From assembly GCA_964426185.1 (NCBI GenBank), contig CAYRPF010000058.1, forward strand, positions 5,349 to 20,402: DNA of 15,054 nucleotides, given 5' to 3'. The notes under the pieces are model-generated. The model saw only the letters and a list, made by a program, of their open reading frames with translations. It had not been told where the DNA came from and did not search any database. A program made the translations under genes and the position numbers. This document shows positions 1 through 8,720 of the stretch, piece after piece; within the stretch, counting starts at the first letter, position 1; every line of letters begins with the position of its first letter. The DNA is from an uncultured archaeon (GTDB taxonomy: Archaea > Asgardarchaeota > Lokiarchaeia > Sigyniarchaeales > Promethearchaeaceae).

Positions 1-259
1 TTATTTCTGAATATTGAGGATATGAATTTATTAAATTTTCAAAGGAAACCACTTCAAAATCATCGAATTCAAACCCAGGCGATACAACACATCCCACTAA
101 GCAAAATGATTTTTTATCTGCTAATTCAGCTCCAAAAATGATATTGGCGGGAATCACCACTTAAGGAAAATGTTCAGAAATTATTGTATTATCCAAGAAA
201 AAGCGCTTATACCCTTCTTTTTCAGAAAAAGTATGAAATATAGCGGTAGAACTAAAAAA
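1..259 (-). pseudogene. 5'-truncated, nonsense-interrupted cupin (DUF985/Cupin_5-like) gene remnant that runs off the window edge
   Basis: Manual minus-strand translation gives FFSSTAIFHTFSEKEGYKRFFLDNTIISEHFP*VVIPANIIFGAELADKKSFCLVGCVVSPGFEFDDFEVVSFENLINSYPQYSEI. This matches the C-terminal half of DUF985 cupins (PQxVVP..WFGA...F.LVGC.V.PGF.F.DFE...L...YP). An in-frame TAA at 161-163 sits where the conserved Gln is expected. The N-terminal HPEGG half is absent. Confidence 0.85.
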
Positions 260-261
260 AA
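254..261 (-). terminator. Archaeal-type oligo-T terminator candidate
   Basis: T8 on the minus strand immediately after the TAA of the 1272-aa gene. Confidence 0.55.
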
Positions 262-3200
262 TTATAAGGGTTTACCACAGAATTCACAGAATACATTGTG
301 AGAATTATGTTGAATATACCCACATTCCATACATTTCTCATTTTCAGCACGTTTTAGTGGTCGGTTAGTTTGCCTATCGAATGCTTGTAGTCTTGCCCTG
401 GTCACCGAAGATCGAACTTGATTATTTAAGTTTTCTTGGACTTTCGGAGGTTTTATCACCCGGGCTTGCTTCATAATCCTTTGTTTTCTCTTAAATTCCC
501 GAAGTTCTTTTGTAGTTTCAAAATGGGGTGTTTTTTCTTCAGCATCTAAATCATATTTAACTAGTATTCTTTGAATAGCAGGTTTTTCTGCCTCAGTACT
601 TTTCACAGACTCAGATACTCCAATCATTTTAGTTTTTTGTAAAGCTTGCTCAATCTCGGCTTCTCTATCGATTTTTTCTTTTAATTTTTTCTTTTTCTTC
701 TTTTGATATTTTTTATCTGTTGGATCAAATTGAAGAGTGCAGAGTTTCATTAAATCGCTGATTTCATTTACTAAATCCTGGGCTTCGAGATAATGGGCAC
801 GTTCTATATAATCTTCCAAGACAAAATAAGCCACTTCACCTTGTTTCCCTTCAACTAATTTTAAGAGTCGTCCTTTAACATCTTTTGTAATAGCATCAAT
901 TTCCTTTGAAATTAGATTTTCAATTCTATTATAGTTCGAATCAAGGTATTGTCGTAAAGCATCTAACACAGGGCTATCGTGATGCTCCAAATCAGAACGA
1001 ATTTCTTCTAAAAGAGCACGTGCTTCCATAATTTGGCTTGATTTTTCTTTAACTAAAGCATTATCAATGCGGATTTTGAAATTCTTATGCGATTGACACA
1101 TTAATAGATATTTGTTAATTTCTGCATTGAATTTATTTACTGCCAAACTTTGAGATTTTGCCTTTAATTGATTTAAAGATTCAGCGGCTTTTACAAAATC
1201 CAAAGCATTTAACTCAGATTCTAAAATTTCTTGTAGATCCGAGCGAATTTCATCTTCACGTTTTATATTATCATTTTCTAGTGTTTCTTGAAGAGACATA
1301 ATTGCTTCTTTTACTTGGGGGAAAACGGCAATGTTGTCTTGAACTTGATTGATCAATGTTTTAATTTCTCGTAAAGTTACTATGAAATCTTCCATTTTAG
1401 CATATTTTTCTGCTAATAGATTATGTCTTTTCATAAATTCATCGTTTTGTACTACTTGATTTTCTAAAACGACAATTTGTGTTCGGAGAACTTCTTCACC
1501 TAAACGTTGAGCTCGAATTTGATAATTCTTTAATCTCTGTAAAATTTCTGTAAAATCCAAAGCGGTAGTGCAACGCTCTTGAATTTCGTGAAAATCTGCA
1601 GTTAATTTCTCTTTTCCATCTTTCAAAGCAGTTTGGATTTCAGAATTTAATAAATTAACTGCATCATGGAGAGCAACACAATAAAAACGCGGTGTTCTTT
1701 TATTAGTACTGGTAATCGAATGTAGCAAAGATTTTGCTTGTTTTTCTGCATGATGGATATCTCCTTCTTCAAAAATCTTTTGAAGTTCTTCATACTCTGC
1801 TAATTTTGCACGATTATCATCCAATTTTCGATGTAAATCTTGGATAACAGAATTAAATTGAGTTAAACCAGTTAATTGAATACGTTGTTCTAATTCTTTA
1901 AGTAAATCCTCCGATCGATTAAAATCAAGAGATTCATCCAAGATATTGTGGAACTCTTCTATTCTATTTTTAATATCTTCTTCTTCCTCAGCAATTTTCT
2001 GTTCCAATTGCTCTAAAGATTTTTGCAGATTTTGAATTAATAGAGGTTCGTATTTATCTTTGTGTTTCATTACGGTTTTTAATAAATGAGTTAATCCTTC
2101 TTTTGCTATTTGAAGTTGATTTTCTTGAATTTTCGCTTCATATCCTACTTGTTCAGTTTGAATACGTTGGTTTTCAACAATACGTTGAGAAAGATCCTCA
2201 ATTATTGAGATATATTGGTTAACACCTGTTTTTTCCGCTTGAATTTGGCAGTTGGCTAAGATTTCAGAGGCGGCAAAAAATTCAAGTTGCGTGCTTAGAA
2301 GTTCTTGCGCTTTATCAATTTGTTCTTTAATAGATACGGTTTCATCATTGATTGTTTGATCAAGTTCTTTTTCCAGAGATTTAACTTCTTGAATTAATTT
2401 CTCAAAAATGTTTTTCTCATTCTTTTTAACCATTTTATTTAATTCGATTAAACGTTCATGAGCAATTTTTAGCTCTTTTTGCTGAATTAGATTCTTTATT
2501 TCTGAATGTATCTTGGCTATCTCAAAATTTAGTTCGAGTAATGATTGTTTTTGCTTCACAAGATTTTCTGTTGAATGATAGGCTTGTTTGGATGCGATAG
2601 CTAAAGATTTTGATAAAGCATCACGTGCATTTTGAAATAACAAATCTTCAGCAAGATTATTCCAAGTTTTTTCAATTTCTTGGATTAATAACGATTCTCC
2701 TTCATTTCGACTTTTTGAAATTTTTTGATCAAGTGAAACTAGTATATTTTGTATATTCTCAAGAAGTGGAGTGACTTCTTGTGATTCTTTTATTTTTTCT
2801 TTTAATTTTTCGATTAAACGGAAAGCTTCAAGATAATCACCTGTTTCGTACACTTCTTTAATTTGTTTCAATTCAAGGTTAATTCCTTTGTTGAAAGAAA
2901 TAGTTGATTGTTGTTGTTGTAATTCTTTTATAAGACCTTCTAGAGAAAATTGAACAAAATACTTTTCTTTACTATGTAAAATATCAAGAGCTTCTTCAAA
3001 TTCAAAATTCAAAGCTTTATTATTAGCCAGATCGATTGTTTCATCCTTTTCTTTGGTGTAGTTTTCAATCATGGAAACAATTTTAGCGATTGCCAATTTC
3101 ATTTCCAATTTCTTATCTGAATATATAAAAAACTCAGGATTTTTAGTGAGTTCTTCAGCTTCTTTTAAACTTTGCAAAGCTTGCGGAAGATTTCGGAGAT

Positions 3201-4080
3201 CTTGACCCACATGGAGTAATTTATTAAATTTAATTAGTTTTAGAGTTATTTTAAACCTTTGAAAAGTGGATTTGAAGAAATATCCAATTTTAGTAGCGAT
3301 ATTAAACTCTGGTACATCTTTAGATATTTTCTTGAAGTGCTGTACAATGTCTCCTTTTTGAGTTTGCAATTGTTTAACAATAGATGGATGAATTTTAAGA
3401 GTATTTTTTGTTGAATTATTTCTTTTTGTTATATAATTTTCACATTGTGTTAAAATATAAAGATTGTATTTTAAAATCGCTTCTTGTTTATTTTTAGTGA
3501 GGGTTTCATAATCTAATGGTAATTCTATTAGTTCAAGGGAACGTAAGCACTTAATATTTTCCTTAATCTGGTGATTTAATCTAATAGATTCATTGACCCA
3601 AGAATAAAATCCTAATTTTTTGGCATTTTGAAGAAGATTTCCTAATTCGAGTTTAGCAGGAATAAAATCGGCACTTGTATACAATTTAAGAGCAGAATAG
3701 TACTTTTTTTGAATTGATTGAGTTTCTGCTCTAATTTTTTTTGAAATTTCTTTTAGCTCGGTATTAATTTCATCCAATAACACTGCTCGATCTTTTAAAT
3801 CATTTTCCCCCATTATCTCAAAATTTGCTTCTAAAAACAATCGTTTATGAAAGAGATTTGAAGTTCTTTGACTGAAGAACTGATTTACATGAAAATATAT
3901 GTTAAAATAGAAATTTTTTAGATTATGAAGAATTTTTTGCATATTAGTTGCATTTTCGTCAATTCCAGGTGCAAAAGTTATCTCTGCGGGATGAATTTCG
4001 GCACCACAAGCTTGACAATATCGAGCGGTGGAATCTTCGATAGGCGCGTCACACTGATTACAATGATCAGACTCACTCAT
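262..4080 (-). CDS. Large all-alpha-helical repeat protein with N- and C-terminal CxxC-x11-CxxC zinc ribbons (function unknown)
   Basis: 1272-aa ORF with ATG start and an upstream GGAG. Zinc ribbons at C7/C10/C22/C25 and C1250/C1253/C1265/C1268. The core is E/K/Q/L-rich with internal repeats. No Walker A motif, catalytic motif or TM helix seen. Confidence 0.9.
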   Translation of the reverse strand: MSESDHCNQCDAPIEDSTARYCQACGAEIHPAEITFAPGIDENATNMQKILHNLKNFYFNIYFHVNQFFSQRTSNLFHKRLFLEANFEIMGENDLKDRAVLLDEINTELKEISKKIRAETQSIQKKYYSALKLYTSADFIPAKLELGNLLQNAKKLGFYSWVNESIRLNHQIKENIKCLRSLELIELPLDYETLTKNKQEAILKYNLYILTQCENYITKRNNSTKNTLKIHPSIVKQLQTQKGDIVQHFKKISKDVPEFNIATKIGYFFKSTFQRFKITLKLIKFNKLLHVGQDLRNLPQALQSLKEAEELTKNPEFFIYSDKKLEMKLAIAKIVSMIENYTKEKDETIDLANNKALNFEFEEALDILHSKEKYFVQFSLEGLIKELQQQQSTISFNKGINLELKQIKEVYETGDYLEAFRLIEKLKEKIKESQEVTPLLENIQNILVSLDQKISKSRNEGESLLIQEIEKTWNNLAEDLLFQNARDALSKSLAIASKQAYHSTENLVKQKQSLLELNFEIAKIHSEIKNLIQQKELKIAHERLIELNKMVKKNEKNIFEKLIQEVKSLEKELDQTINDETVSIKEQIDKAQELLSTQLEFFAASEILANCQIQAEKTGVNQYISIIEDLSQRIVENQRIQTEQVGYEAKIQENQLQIAKEGLTHLLKTVMKHKDKYEPLLIQNLQKSLEQLEQKIAEEEEDIKNRIEEFHNILDESLDFNRSEDLLKELEQRIQLTGLTQFNSVIQDLHRKLDDNRAKLAEYEELQKIFEEGDIHHAEKQAKSLLHSITSTNKRTPRFYCVALHDAVNLLNSEIQTALKDGKEKLTADFHEIQERCTTALDFTEILQRLKNYQIRAQRLGEEVLRTQIVVLENQVVQNDEFMKRHNLLAEKYAKMEDFIVTLREIKTLINQVQDNIAVFPQVKEAIMSLQETLENDNIKREDEIRSDLQEILESELNALDFVKAAESLNQLKAKSQSLAVNKFNAEINKYLLMCQSHKNFKIRIDNALVKEKSSQIMEARALLEEIRSDLEHHDSPVLDALRQYLDSNYNRIENLISKEIDAITKDVKGRLLKLVEGKQGEVAYFVLEDYIERAHYLEAQDLVNEISDLMKLCTLQFDPTDKKYQKKKKKKLKEKIDREAEIEQALQKTKMIGVSESVKSTEAEKPAIQRILVKYDLDAEEKTPHFETTKELREFKRKQRIMKQARVIKPPKVQENLNNQVRSSVTRARLQAFDRQTNRPLKRAENEKCMECGYIQHNSHNVFCEFCGKPL
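730..3063 (-). repeat. Degenerate protein-level tandem repeat of ~119-123 aa, 6-7 copies
   Basis: Anchor (L/F)-(D/E/L)-F at F361, F482, F601, F720, F843 and F962, with a degenerate copy at 1081 (spacings 121, 119, 119, 123, 119, 119). Leu recurs at +7, small/Gly at +18, Asn at +36 (N397, N518, N637, N756, N879) and a second hydrophobic-xx-A helix start at about +55. Confidence 0.8.
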
Positions 4081-4172: not shown

Positions 4173-7127
4173 TTAGCGCGATTTTTTTAACTTACACTTA
4201 ATCGTTCTAATTTCAAAGGGAGAAAAATCAAGAATTAGTTCAGTTGTATCTGAACTCCATTTCAAATCTAAAGGAATTTTGGGACGCTCAAGCAGATCAG
4301 TCTCCCAAATTTCTTCAATTAAAGAAGCAAAATCCTTTGGAAATTGGATAATAGATTTTTTGTGGGTAAAACCACAACGTTCGATAAATCTCAAAATAAC
4401 ACTGTTATCTTTATTCCATTGTTCTGGTTTTATAACTGACAACTCTATTCCGGTTTGAAGATCGAAGGAAAAAGAATGAATATCAGGCAAATTATCTGAT
4501 TTTTCTGGCTCGCTTTTTAGTTTAAATGAATTGAATGAATAAATAACAATAGGATGGTTAAATTCTTCCGCCATTTTTGGTACGAAAGTAGAAGGGGCTT
4601 GTTTTTCATTAACCAAACACCCCCCTACATGAGGTAAAATCGCAAATCGGCAGCTGGTTGGACCTATGCCAGAATATCTCAGGGGTTTACCCTTCCCTTC
4701 ATTTTTACGCTGTAATCTTTCAAATTTCACCCAAGATTCTGCAGAAGGTCGGGGATACTTTGGTGATCTATGCATTGAGATTCTTATTCGCCCTCCAGAA
4801 GCATCATACGCATATTTACCTTCATTTATGATGGCAATTCCCCATTTGTTATCGGGAGTGGAGATATCAACATATTTATGCATAACTTTTTCAAATCTGG
4901 CAATATCAGCGGGTGTTTCAGGTAAAGTTGAAGAAGAAGAAGCGCAATACATCTGATCCGAAGTTACAGAAGTTGCTTGGGTGTTAGTAAATAAACCTAA
5001 TTTTAATAAAGTGTCAGGAAGTTGCCAATTGGCGGCCCAACTGCAATAAATTAAAGGATCATCATGAAAAAGACTAATTTTTTGAATTACTTTGGAATTC
5101 TCAAGAGTTCTTTGAATTTTTAGAGTGCTGAAAATTGGACCTTGATCTACAATGGAAATCTCCAAGTCTTGCCTTTGGTTGAAGTTCAGCGGGTATTTCC
5201 AATACTCTTTTTGTATATCCCAAGCAGGATATTCAGAAGAACCCTTATCTTTATATCCCTCCAATATGAAATTCCTTTTTCCATAAATTAAGTTTTCCCC
5301 TTTATTGATTTTTCTACCCTTAACGGAAATTAAACTTCCCATATGTGGATCAAATTCTAGAGATACCTTTCCGTTAGTAATACGGGGCGTCTTTCGCAAA
5401 GAAATAAATAATGGAGGTGATTGAACGGATTCAAATCTAATTTCTCCTATGATTGCGCCATGAGGATCCATCTCAATAATCGTCCACCAACCTTCTTTAT
5501 GATTATTCATATTATCTTGAAATTCTGCCTTAACAGGTTGACAAATGGATGAACGAAGTTTTCCATTATAGTTATAATACAAGCGCGCATAGGGCAATAG
5601 ATTGGATTCTGTATTAGTGGATGATTTGAATTCCCTAATGAGACATTTAGGAATGAAAACTCGAGATTTTCGGCGCCAATTAAGGGGATTAAAGAAGAAA
5701 ATAAGGTTTTTAGTTTTAAATTCCGAGGGAACATTGTGTGGAAAATAATTTAGAAGTTGCGAGAGTATCTCATCGAGATTTTTATCGACTTGGGAAAATA
5801 ATTTAAAAACATCGTCTAAAACCTCTGGAACACAGCTTCCAGGTAAGACATCATGAAATTGGTTTAATAAAAGTGTTTTCCAACTCCTATCAAACAGATA
5901 AGATGGGAATTCATAATTCGGGTTCATTAGAGAACATAATGTAGCCAAGCGTTCTATATCTAAAATTCGATTTTCTAAACGACGGTTGTGCCTCTTTACA
6001 GCACTATGAACCGTGAAAGTTCCCCGATGAGCTTCTAAATAGAGTTCGTCATTCCAAACAGCTAAATTATTTTGATATTTCTCTATTTCTGAAAAGAAAT
6101 TATGAACCATTGACCAATTCCATTGAATCCCTTGAGATTTTGCAAGCTCGCTTAATACTTGCATCTGAGCGACTTCATAATAAGCAGGACCATGCCCTCC
6201 ATCACCAGCTCCCCAAAATAGTCCAACTGGTCGAATAATTTTATTGCGGTTAATAATTGCCGCAATTCTTGAAAAATCATCCTGGTAATTCCATTTATTC
6301 TGATTTGTGTCTTTTATTGTATAATGCCCAAAAGGGTAATCCTTCCATTGATCGAAGATTTCTCGATTTTGGGCGAAATTAGCGGTTATTAACTGCGTCC
6401 CGTCAGGAGATTCCCAGATAAAATAGATGAATGGAAATTTATTCTGTTTATTCCAAGTTAGTTTTGTGGTCCAAAAATACTTTGCCCCAGATTTTGCTAA
6501 TATTTGCGGTAAACCTTTATTATAACCGAAAGAATCTAAAAACCACTCTACTTCTGGAAGTATGCCGAATTCTTCTTGATAAAACTTCATCCCATATAAT
6601 CTTTGCCTTACAATTGATTCTCCACTAGGTAGCATGCAATCGGGTTCAACCCAAGAACCTCCAACTAATTCCAGTTGCTCTTTCTTATGAATAGAAAGTA
6701 AGGAACTGAAAAGTTCTGGATCATCTTCCTTTATCCATGATAATAGTTGGGGGCTGGAAACGGCAAAAACAAATTGATGGGGGAATTTCTTCGCATGTGC
6801 TAACACTTTCTTAAGAGTAGTTATCCCTTTTTGCCGAGTTTGCTCATAACGCCACAACCAAGCCATATCAATGTGGGACTGCCCCACCATAAAAAAATCA
6901 AAGTGTGATAAGGCTTCGGGCAGAAGTTGATGGTTCCATTGCTCAAGCTTTTCTTCCATTTCAGTTCTAAACTCGAGAGATTGAAGTTGATTTTCAAAAT
7001 ATTCTTCCATATTCTTTGAATCATCCAAATCTTGTTCAGAAAATTGACTTGGATCTAATCTTTCAGAGCCAGAAACAATCCCAATTTCTCCAGTTTTACG
7101 ATAAGAAAGCTGTTGTTTGGAACCCAT
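4173..7127 (-). CDS. Glycoside hydrolase family 38 alpha-mannosidase (class II, Zn-dependent), cytosolic
   Basis: GH38 motifs QSHIDMAWLW (Zn-binding HxD), LVGGSWVEPD, WFLDSFG (nucleophile Asp), GAGDGGHGP, ELYLEAHRGTFT, LLNQFHDVLPGS and C-terminal ETDLLE and PFEIRT. No signal peptide. Confidence 0.95.
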   Translation of the reverse strand: MGSKQQLSYRKTGEIGIVSGSERLDPSQFSEQDLDDSKNMEEYFENQLQSLEFRTEMEEKLEQWNHQLLPEALSHFDFFMVGQSHIDMAWLWRYEQTRQKGITTLKKVLAHAKKFPHQFVFAVSSPQLLSWIKEDDPELFSSLLSIHKKEQLELVGGSWVEPDCMLPSGESIVRQRLYGMKFYQEEFGILPEVEWFLDSFGYNKGLPQILAKSGAKYFWTTKLTWNKQNKFPFIYFIWESPDGTQLITANFAQNREIFDQWKDYPFGHYTIKDTNQNKWNYQDDFSRIAAIINRNKIIRPVGLFWGAGDGGHGPAYYEVAQMQVLSELAKSQGIQWNWSMVHNFFSEIEKYQNNLAVWNDELYLEAHRGTFTVHSAVKRHNRRLENRILDIERLATLCSLMNPNYEFPSYLFDRSWKTLLLNQFHDVLPGSCVPEVLDDVFKLFSQVDKNLDEILSQLLNYFPHNVPSEFKTKNLIFFFNPLNWRRKSRVFIPKCLIREFKSSTNTESNLLPYARLYYNYNGKLRSSICQPVKAEFQDNMNNHKEGWWTIIEMDPHGAIIGEIRFESVQSPPLFISLRKTPRITNGKVSLEFDPHMGSLISVKGRKINKGENLIYGKRNFILEGYKDKGSSEYPAWDIQKEYWKYPLNFNQRQDLEISIVDQGPIFSTLKIQRTLENSKVIQKISLFHDDPLIYCSWAANWQLPDTLLKLGLFTNTQATSVTSDQMYCASSSSTLPETPADIARFEKVMHKYVDISTPDNKWGIAIINEGKYAYDASGGRIRISMHRSPKYPRPSAESWVKFERLQRKNEGKGKPLRYSGIGPTSCRFAILPHVGGCLVNEKQAPSTFVPKMAEEFNHPIVIYSFNSFKLKSEPEKSDNLPDIHSFSFDLQTGIELSVIKPEQWNKDNSVILRFIERCGFTHKKSIIQFPKDFASLIEEIWETDLLERPKIPLDLKWSSDTTELILDFSPFEIRTIKCKLKKSR

Positions 7128-7184: not shown

Positions 7185-8720
7185 TTACAAATCTGTCAAA
7201 ATAGTGTAATGTTTCCAATTTTCAACCCATGATTTACGTAGATCGATTTCTAATATTTTGGCATCAATATCGCGCTTTCCATAGCTAGAGCTAGAAAAAA
7301 TACTGAACATTCGATCTTGGAAATATTCTTTATGACCATCCAAAAAGACTTCATGCGAACGAATAACTCGATCTACGTTGTTGATCTCTAAAAATTTCTC
7401 AAAAATTTCCTTACCAAAACTGTAACCTACGCCTCGACGGCTAGGTAGGTAATATTCACCGGGTGGCATTTTCTCTTCAGGATCACCCCATAAAATTTGT
7501 TTTGAAAGAAGATCCATTTCTTCCACGGTTGAAAATGAGGGAGATAGAACCACAGAACCATCCGAAATCTTAGGAATTTTCGGCATAACTTCATAATCTT
7601 CCGGATAAAAGGGAATACCACCATGTAACGCAAGAATACTCTTTTCTGGGGTTTGGGTTATATGACCCAAAGGTAAATTAATGAAAGTATATTCAAAATC
7701 GTTAAATAGATAAGAATTCGGGAGATATTTATTTATATTTGCCCAAAACCCGTATTGCATGTTGATAGTAACTTCTTCATGATTACCACGTAAAAGACGA
7801 ATATTTTGGGGAAACTGTAGCGCAAAACTGAAAAGATAGAGCAAATTGTGAATATCCATTTCATGTCGATCTACATAATCTCCCAAAAATACAACCAGAA
7901 CATGATAATCTTCCTTTAAAGATAACTCAATTTCCTTTACAAAGAATTTAATGCATTGATCTAAATCAAATATGGAGCCGTGAGTATCTCCAACATAAAA
8001 TACCTTTCCATTTTCGAGATGATCGATAACAGGTAATCCTGGATTTAGTATATCTGGATTGAGAAGATAAAGATTAATTTCTTCCAGTAAACCTTTAATT
8101 TTTGAAACTTTCTTATCATCCCCTAGATAGGAAGTGGGATCGTAGATTTGCCGATCGATGAAGTAGTATTTCCAAAATTCATCAGCATGAGGTGTTTCTA
8201 ATTTCTCGCCGCAGGGCCAAGTGGTTTTACGGGTAAAATAATCACTAGGCACTGTTTTCAGAGAGTCAATAGGTGCTACAGATTGAAGATCTTCAGCTTC
8301 TTGCATAGCTTTTTCTTCAGCACGGAGTTTCTGAAGTTTTTCTAAAAATTCACGCTCTGTAGAAATCTCTGATTCCTTTTCTGTTTTAAAGCGGCTGAAG
8401 ATTTCTTCGCTTAGTTCAGTTATATCCTCGGTTAGATTGCGTATTTGGAGTGGAGTTTTATCGCGATTACAAATTAATTTACCCAATTCGAATAATGGCC
8501 GCTTTTCCCGAGGGATTTCAAGATTTGCAATATCTAAACTATCATAATATCGGTGACATGTGGGACAAACCATTATTGTCCTTTTTTCTTGAATTTTCAA
8601 GGAATTATGAAGACAATTTCTGCAGATCCCGCTTTCCCCTTCAAGATCTATATAATAGAAACATTCCCGACAGTTAGTACAGATATATAAGCTTTTTTGC
8701 TCATTCCCTCGATTAGTCAA
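7185..8720 (-). CDS. PPP-family Ser/Thr protein phosphatase with N-terminal double zinc ribbon and charged helical linker
   Basis: Motifs GDTHG (244-248), GDYVDR (280-285), RGNHE (311-315), HGG, ILWGDP, SRRG.G..FG, IRSHE and SIFSSSSY. The N-terminus has CTNC..CRNC and CPTC..CNRD. TTG start follows a GAGG/GAGTGA SD-like stretch, with an in-frame TAA 8 codons upstream. Confidence 0.93.
   Translation of the reverse strand: MTNRGNEQKSLYICTNCRECFYYIDLEGESGICRNCLHNSLKIQEKRTIMVCPTCHRYYDSLDIANLEIPREKRPLFELGKLICNRDKTPLQIRNLTEDITELSEEIFSRFKTEKESEISTEREFLEKLQKLRAEEKAMQEAEDLQSVAPIDSLKTVPSDYFTRKTTWPCGEKLETPHADEFWKYYFIDRQIYDPTSYLGDDKKVSKIKGLLEEINLYLLNPDILNPGLPVIDHLENGKVFYVGDTHGSIFDLDQCIKFFVKEIELSLKEDYHVLVVFLGDYVDRHEMDIHNLLYLFSFALQFPQNIRLLRGNHEEVTINMQYGFWANINKYLPNSYLFNDFEYTFINLPLGHITQTPEKSILALHGGIPFYPEDYEVMPKIPKISDGSVVLSPSFSTVEEMDLLSKQILWGDPEEKMPPGEYYLPSRRGVGYSFGKEIFEKFLEINNVDRVIRSHEVFLDGHKEYFQDRMFSIFSSSSYGKRDIDAKILEIDLRKSWVENWKHYTILTDL

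Follow-up and report, generated by a model that had tools for sequence, protein, structure and literature searches.

The window analyzed here, a 15,054-nucleotide stretch of contig CAYRPF010000058.1 (positions 5,349 to 20,402, forward strand) in the assembly GCA_964426185.1 of an uncultured Lokiarchaeia archaeon, carries on its minus strand a gene (262–4080, stop codon included) for a soluble protein of 1272 amino acids (aa) built around a tandem repeat of ~119 residues. We find the repeat to be real and ancient at the protein level, and the models computed for it picture each unit as two unlike short three-helix bundles with continuous helices in common. The protein is annotated as "hypothetical protein" in every source, has no transmembrane segment (the maximum Kyte–Doolittle value over 19 aa is 0.74), and matches no enzymatic (catalytic) family in Pfam or NCBIfam. 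We consider it fairly probable that it is a cytoplasmic, nonenzymatic modular rod that serves as a spacer or tether, its C-terminal end being anchored to a polyanion. The structural part of this reading is well supported; what we infer beyond it are the straightness and the length of the rod, its ligands, and its role in the cell.

A preliminary description of the DNA had flagged window positions 730–3063, which encode residues 340–1117 of the minus-strand open reading frame (ORF) 262–4080, as six or seven units of a ~119-aa tandem helical repeat, and both the period and the count have held: the protein contains six full units and a partial one. In a BLOSUM62 autocorrelation against 100 shuffles, lag 119 was the top self-similarity of the protein (z 7.7), with echoes at lags 242 (z 5.0) and 361 (z 4.3), and the repeat motifs lie at residues 359, 480, 599, 718, 841, and 960, spaced by 119 to 123 residues. 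Self-BLAST of the whole protein gave the identity match only; chunk-wise BLASTP recovered in-register matches at offsets of 119, 238 to 242, and 357 to 359, the strongest at 30.8% identity and E 1.3e-16. Leave-one-out hidden Markov models (HMMs) of single units, each made from seven orthologs, detect the remaining units in register, strongly for some pairs (E 1e-7 to 1e-11) and weakly for others. The strongest test, and an independent one, comes from outside the genus: run on proteins from two further genera, a unit HMM trained on six-unit orthologs only picks out five complete units (E 1e-7 to 1e-20). A 357-nucleotide repeat is absent at the DNA level, and the protein-level repeat is thus old and not an artefact of assembly.

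The six canonical units match the unit profile, A3, at E 1e-21 to 1e-28 and follow each other on the minus strand as unit 1 (2704–3066; residues 339–459; placed by the unit HMM and by a cross-genus positional clade with support 100/96), unit 2 (2347–2703; residues 460–578; unit HMMs and unit tree), unit 3 (1990–2346; residues 579–697), unit 4 (1621–1989; residues 698–820; unit HMMs, structure model, and unit tree), unit 5 (1264–1620; residues 821–939), and unit 6 (895–1263; residues 940–1062; unit HMM, conservation, and unit tree). They are closed by a conserved partial-unit cap (715–894, minus strand; residues 1063–1122), with helices at residues 1081–1097 and 1101–1117 and an hhalign match at E 2.4e-5 for residues 1082–1116. 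The signature of the unit is L21-x-F23-x2-A26-x3-L30, an L-D-F-x-x-A-x-x-x-L turn motif, followed at a distance by G41 and N59; among the 43 units compared, F23 is present in 35, L30 in 34, and N59 in 37.

The model of units 3 to 5, computed from a 12-sequence alignment, is all helix and has a pLDDT of 93.3 and a pTM of 0.70; the helices of a unit measure ~37 aa (this one crossing the unit border), 17 aa, ~32 aa, and 17 to 21 aa. In a 1200-residue model (pLDDT 80.6, pTM 0.39), long helices of 29 to 39 aa and short ones of 15 to 21 aa, 18 of the latter, alternate over residues 44–1117, and disorder is limited to residues 31–44 and 1142–1183, with pLDDT <50 for 1142–1183. Segments that run from the end of one long helix through the short helix into the beginning of the long helix after it superpose on isolated three-helix bundles with an rmsd of 1.1–2.2 Å, as seen for residues 339–396, 118–173, 753–817, and 814–882 of the 1200-residue model, for its residues 817–877 on a BAG domain, and for residues 236–304 and 54–121 of the three-unit model. 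The packing of the helices was deduced from the ranges of such fold matches and not from coordinates; so read, the models suggest ~18 short bundles strung on continuous helices, with the connectivity of spectrin and about half its bundle length. The L-D-F-x-x-A-x-x-x-L turn motif belongs to one bundle of each unit, and a G-D-Y/I-x-x-A motif to the other. The preliminary description had seen a second helix start about 55 residues into the unit and had proposed two fused helical hairpins. By sequence this half-repeat is weak (hhalign E 0.0025, probability 12%, register correct) but in the predicted structure it is clear, as two long–short helix pairs per unit; the hairpins came close, the units actually looking like two short three-helix bundles.

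The same alternation of long and short helices extends, in the full-length model as assigned by DSSP, through a basic N-terminal region (3067–3951, minus strand; residues 44–338; pI 8.2–9.8). An isolated copy of the repeat had been suspected here and is located at residue 137: residues 138–250 (3331–3669, minus strand) form a degenerate unit, aligned to the unit profile by hhalign at E 4.9e-6. Within the same region, residues 49–116 and 118–173 superpose on three-helix bundles with an rmsd of 1.1–1.9 Å.

Rod and solenoid had at first been named side by side, and the models favor the rod without proving it. Neither the three-unit nor the 1200-aa model has a Foldseek match at E ≤ 0.001, and on compact TPR and other solenoid proteins they superpose with TM ≤ 0.16 and an rmsd of 23–38 Å (three-unit model) or 27–110 Å (1200-aa model), as poorly as expected if the rod model is extended. 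We see very little chance that the units form a TPR-, HEAT-, or PCI-like alpha-solenoid, a superhelical platform for protein binding. The top Foldseek rows are indeed TPR proteins such as P58IPK, LGN, Ctr9, and IFT-A, but they have E ≥ 0.001 and an rmsd of 23–110 Å, and the TPR rows for the three-unit model have E ≥ 0.15 and an rmsd above 27 Å; and while the G-D-Y-x-x-A turn motif is reminiscent of the way TPR-like helices begin and paralogous proteins place the unit before a possible winged helix (judged by eye), an order that recalls PCI proteins, the local superpositions fall on three-helix bundles and not on stacks of helix pairs. Helices of alternately ~35 and ~17 aa differ from the uniform 12- to 16-aa pairs of TPR or HEAT, the period of 119 aa differs from their 34 to 40 aa, as the preliminary description had pointed out, and the Pfam models of TPR, HEAT, and Sel1 match neither the protein nor its single units.

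The regularity of the turns speaks to a further alternative. The L-D-F and G-D-Y motifs, G41, the prolines at residues 679, 797, 921, and 1037, and the N59 mentioned above recur in conserved positions and thus fit discrete helices of 15 to 39 aa, not an uninterrupted coiled coil, and the intrachain fold is predicted at a pLDDT of 93. It is therefore unlikely, in our judgment, that the protein works as an intermolecular coiled coil or bundle, a dimer or filament of the intermediate-filament or SMC type, with the monomeric AlphaFold bundles being an artefact, even though the rod sequence is very helical and highly charged, its lag-7 self-similarity reaches z 4.8 in the autocorrelation, a monomer model cannot show oligomers, and head-to-tail association is conceivable for a rod that is acidic and has basic ends. 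A homodimer prediction with two copies of residues 821–1122 scored 0.00, which is no answer and counts as evidence neither way.

Among the closest known systems are the spectrin repeats of spectrin, alpha-actinin, and plakins (PF00435; for example, plectin SR3–SR4, 3pdy; alpha-spectrin R15–16, 3fb2 and 1u5p), from which the rod differs in several respects. Its bundles are ~60 aa long against ~106 aa in spectrin, and its period of 119 aa holds two unlike bundles; a unit has four helices, of ~37, 17, 32, and 17 to 21 aa, where the spectrin repeat is one bundle of ~30-aa helices. The conserved helix-A Trp is lacking, as was noticed from the start: the protein has two Trp only, W161 and W473, neither at a recurring position of the unit. 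Its ends are made of zinc ribbons and a basic tail, without actin-binding or EF-hand domains. PF00435 does not match the whole protein at E ≤ 0.1, and its matches to two of the 43 single units (best E 0.0042) are below the cut-off and at chance level for 43 queries. EzrA (PF06160), the spectrin-like regulator of division in bacteria, resembles the rod in being prokaryotic and in consisting of consecutive helical-bundle repeats of ~100 to 120 aa. EzrA repeats may likewise begin helices with F-x-F-x-x-A-like motifs. The rod, in contrast, has a zinc ribbon at the N terminus instead of a membrane anchor, and its hosts are archaea, not Bacillota; the EzrA model does not match the rod protein at E ≤ 0.1, EzrA is not among the 50 best fold matches, and when all six frames of the genome were searched with PF06160 at E ≤ 1, two weak matches turned up on other contigs and none on the rod gene. 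A true but divergent homolog of the spectrin superfamily (spectrin, alpha-actinin, plakin, EzrA), which by descent would be an Asgard cross-linker of the membrane skeleton or cytoskeleton, thus fails on sequence, period, Trp, and membrane anchor, and we hold it to be improbable.

Short three-helix bundles, designed or natural (8uos, 9jm8, and 6ds9; the BAG domains 1ugo and 4hwi), do superpose on the half-units, with an rmsd of 1.1–2.4 Å over 55 to 82 residues, but they are isolated domains without a sequence relationship, whereas the rod joins ~18 bundles via shared helices. In sequence databases, Pfam gave only subthreshold zinc-ribbon matches on the whole protein (E ≤ 0.1) and no family that matched more than three of the 43 single units, and NCBIfam gave no meaningful match. 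Nothing in the Protein Data Bank (PDB) fell below E 0.005: E 0.006, to the occludin/ELL helical domain, was the best value for the unit profile and E 0.39 the best for the whole-family profile, and the C-terminal tail found nothing. A protein atlas returned zinc-ribbon clusters only, with scores ≤0.81 and within the noise range, and in the literature on Asgard archaea, spectrin, three-helix-bundle repeats, and Harpocratesius, we found no description of the rod protein. The early suspicion of an undescribed repeat family is borne out: this is an undescribed sequence family that uses a familiar principle, the concatenation of three-helix bundles.

The family is also narrowly distributed. Seven full-length orthologs exist in 5.8 billion clusters, 1256 to 1272 aa long and aligned nearly without gaps; they are labeled Promethearchaeota or Candidatus Harpocratesius sp., and one of 1267 aa (P0003, genome G135) is 59 to 61% identical to P0001. 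That the host might be an Asgard archaeon, as first surmised, agrees with these names. The rod protein is found in 9 of 400 genomes of the phylum, and a single family accounts for 8 of the 9, among them the genome of the window. A survey with a unit HMM, proposed at the outset, covered 1.84 billion representative proteins and gave 40 matches at E ≤ 0.001, 15 of them at E ≤ 1e-10; every match with a source-named taxon is from Promethearchaeota, and no eukaryotic relatives were identified among the matches. Within the phylum, the unit occurs in 10 of the 13 genomes of the family and, against that, as four weak single matches in ~386 other genomes. Public sequencing runs that contain the sequence are DNA runs from hydrothermal-vent, marine, or sediment metagenomes, and no RNA runs carrying it are listed among them.

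The number of units varies among genera. In the genus of the window's genome (g1) it is six, and in two others (g5 and g6) it is five, in proteins of 1020 to 1168 aa. The unit absent from the five-unit proteins is unit 3, where their alignment has a gap (identity 0.01). In a maximum-likelihood tree of the 43 units, clustering is by position across genera, with support of 90 to 100; the g1-specific unit 3 forms a clade of its own (100/99) as a weak sister to the unit-4 clade (82/66). The array must therefore have existed before the genera separated, with one unit either duplicated or lost.

Conservation and charge vary along the protein. Conservation is highest in the cap, the basic tail, units 5 and 6, and the C-terminal ribbon. 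The units of the rod have an acidic pI of 4.9–6.0, in contrast to the basic N-terminal third and to the tail at pI 11.7. After the cap come a lysine-rich patch, KKYQKKKKKKLKEK, and a variable, probably disordered linker (together 535–714, minus strand; residues 1123–1182; 40% identity among close orthologs). The run of lysines in KKYQKKKKKKLKEK (window 671–714) shows up on the plus strand as a T/C-rich low-complexity tract in Tandem Repeats Finder, and the number of its lysines differs among orthologs. The basic tail that follows (343–534, minus strand; residues 1183–1246), with the core ENLNN-x-VR-x-S-x-TR, is the top segment for identity among close orthologs at 74%, the cap having 73%; it is kept in g1, g5, and metagenomic relatives and is without relatives in Pfam or the PDB, and when copies of the C-terminal tail standing on their own were sought, only fragments of the same gene family came up. 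The protein ends in a putative zinc ribbon (265–342, minus strand; residues 1247–1272) whose cysteines, C1250, C1253, C1265, and C1268, are kept in every family member seen. A second putative ribbon stands at the N terminus (3994–4068, minus strand; residues 5–29; C7, C10, C22, and C25, CxxC-x11-CxxC); its cysteines are invariant in the seven close orthologs, and it occurs only in g1 and one g5 genome, being absent from the genus-g6 proteins, from genome G138, and from several metagenomic relatives. Scores of zinc-ribbon models in Pfam (PF13240 and DZR PF12773) for the two ribbons are 17 to 19.6 bits against cut-offs of 25 to 27; the N-terminal one has 19.6 bits against a cut-off of 25 with Zn_Ribbon_1 and so stays below the threshold.

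We suspect that these parts would work together in the following way. The acidic rod, with a pI of about 5, would act as a spacer, and the C-terminal part, comprising the cap, the lysine patch, a flexible linker of ~40 aa, the very basic motif, and the CxxC...CxxC zinc ribbon, would be its business end, anchoring the rod to a polyanion, which would be nucleic acid or else the surface of an anionic membrane. A second partner may be held by the N-terminal third, which is basic and in which the zinc ribbon is optional, and the whole protein would then be a tether, ruler, or scaffold of roughly 45–50 nm. Some observations weigh against this picture. Genus g6 has a much reduced tail, and the N-terminal ribbon is lacking from many of the proteins, and thus neither can be essential to every member of the family. 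Furthermore, the conserved gene order at the locus, from a thiol relay through a PPP phosphatase and a GH38 mannosidase to the rod, gives no obvious functional link, and in three genomes the GH38 and rod genes are separated by a ZIP-family transporter gene, which in one case is on the other strand.

The co-oriented order of a 119-aa Cys protein, a thioredoxin-like protein, CcdA, a PPP phosphatase with zinc ribbons, the GH38 mannosidase, and the rod is kept wholly or partly across three genera; in the window, the neighbors of the rod gene in this block occupy 4173–7127 and 7185–8720 on the minus strand, and the block is also found at loci L013 to L017. Across genera, the rod is 25 to 35% identical, against about 47% for GH38 and about 49% for PPP, and diverges much faster. 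With the ZIP gene intervening in three genomes, a functional operon with the GH38 mannosidase is unsupported beyond synteny, and we read the gene order as inherited synteny. The ZIP-type gene, of 269 to 278 aa and recognized by eye, is present in genomes G135 and G142 (L015:7201–8037 and L014:11319–12128, both minus strand) and is absent from the window; a GH38–rod gap of similar size, about 1.07 kb, exists in G141. The gene stands near several zinc-ribbon proteins, which may be coincidence.

On its 5' side, the rod gene is preceded by a 92-nucleotide gap with an AT-rich TATA-like element, and directly 3' of its stop codon, a run of eight T (254–261, minus strand) is plausibly an archaeal terminator, judging from how the letters read. 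Convergent genes follow beyond the 3' end: a pair of a kinase-FHA protein and a PP1-like phosphatase, and an ORF of 239 aa (L020:1319–4420 and 4490–5209, plus strand). Downstream in G135 are ORFs of matching size and order (658, 395, and 236 aa), with two extra ORFs inserted, the likeness being one of size and order only, and in G137 the rod is followed instead by two ORFs of about 1100 aa.

The unit is also found outside the rod. A paralogous family of ~530- to 610-aa proteins (P0022, P0025, and P0034; in the window's own genome, G000, at L027:643–2469, plus strand, on contig C7) has one or two units, a possible winged-helix region (by eye), and a conserved acidic, amphipathic C-terminal tail, for example DDLLDTLDNLLNEDL and DALDALDDLLDEDF, that looks like a short peptide-docking motif; there are no Pfam or NCBIfam matches for these paralogs. 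P0027, a 781-aa protein from a JGI metagenome, is receptor-like, with a NosD/beta-helix ectodomain, one transmembrane helix, a K/E-rich helix, and cytoplasmic units; its conserved C-terminal domain, with the ending ...KDGKIE(D/H)F..., recurs in P0019. In P0016, units occur together with a large uncharacterized C-terminal domain and a zinc ribbon, and small proteins with a single unit exist as well. Finally, at least three tandem units (E 1.7e-11 to 2.7e-7) are present in G141 (contig C101, 10070–11080, plus strand) within an open frame of 1785 aa, which may be a second long rod with a different architecture.

Overall, our analyses describe a conserved, very large, and modular structural protein of spectrin style in a group, the Asgard archaea, that is being searched for the beginnings of eukaryotic cell architecture. 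New here are the two-bundle anatomy of the unit, the variation between five and six units, the positional orthology, the other unit-bearing proteins, and the range at the level of a family. The unit being present also in membrane receptors and possible winged-helix proteins of the same archaea, its profile would improve the annotation of their genomes. The practical value will stay modest as long as neither a partner nor a place in the cell has been found. A far-reaching thought, to which we give only a slim chance, is that the rod is an Asgard-specific "mini-spectrin" of the cytoskeleton or membrane skeleton, a spacer or cross-linker of membrane, nucleoid, or filaments with a reach of about 50 nm, and that its 60-aa bundle could be an archaeal type ancestral to the longer spectrin-like repeats. 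Given that no described family includes the protein and no eukaryotic relative could be detected, it seems to be a long spacer or tether invented within one lineage, the relatives of Candidatus Harpocratesius, rather than a eukaryotic signature protein.

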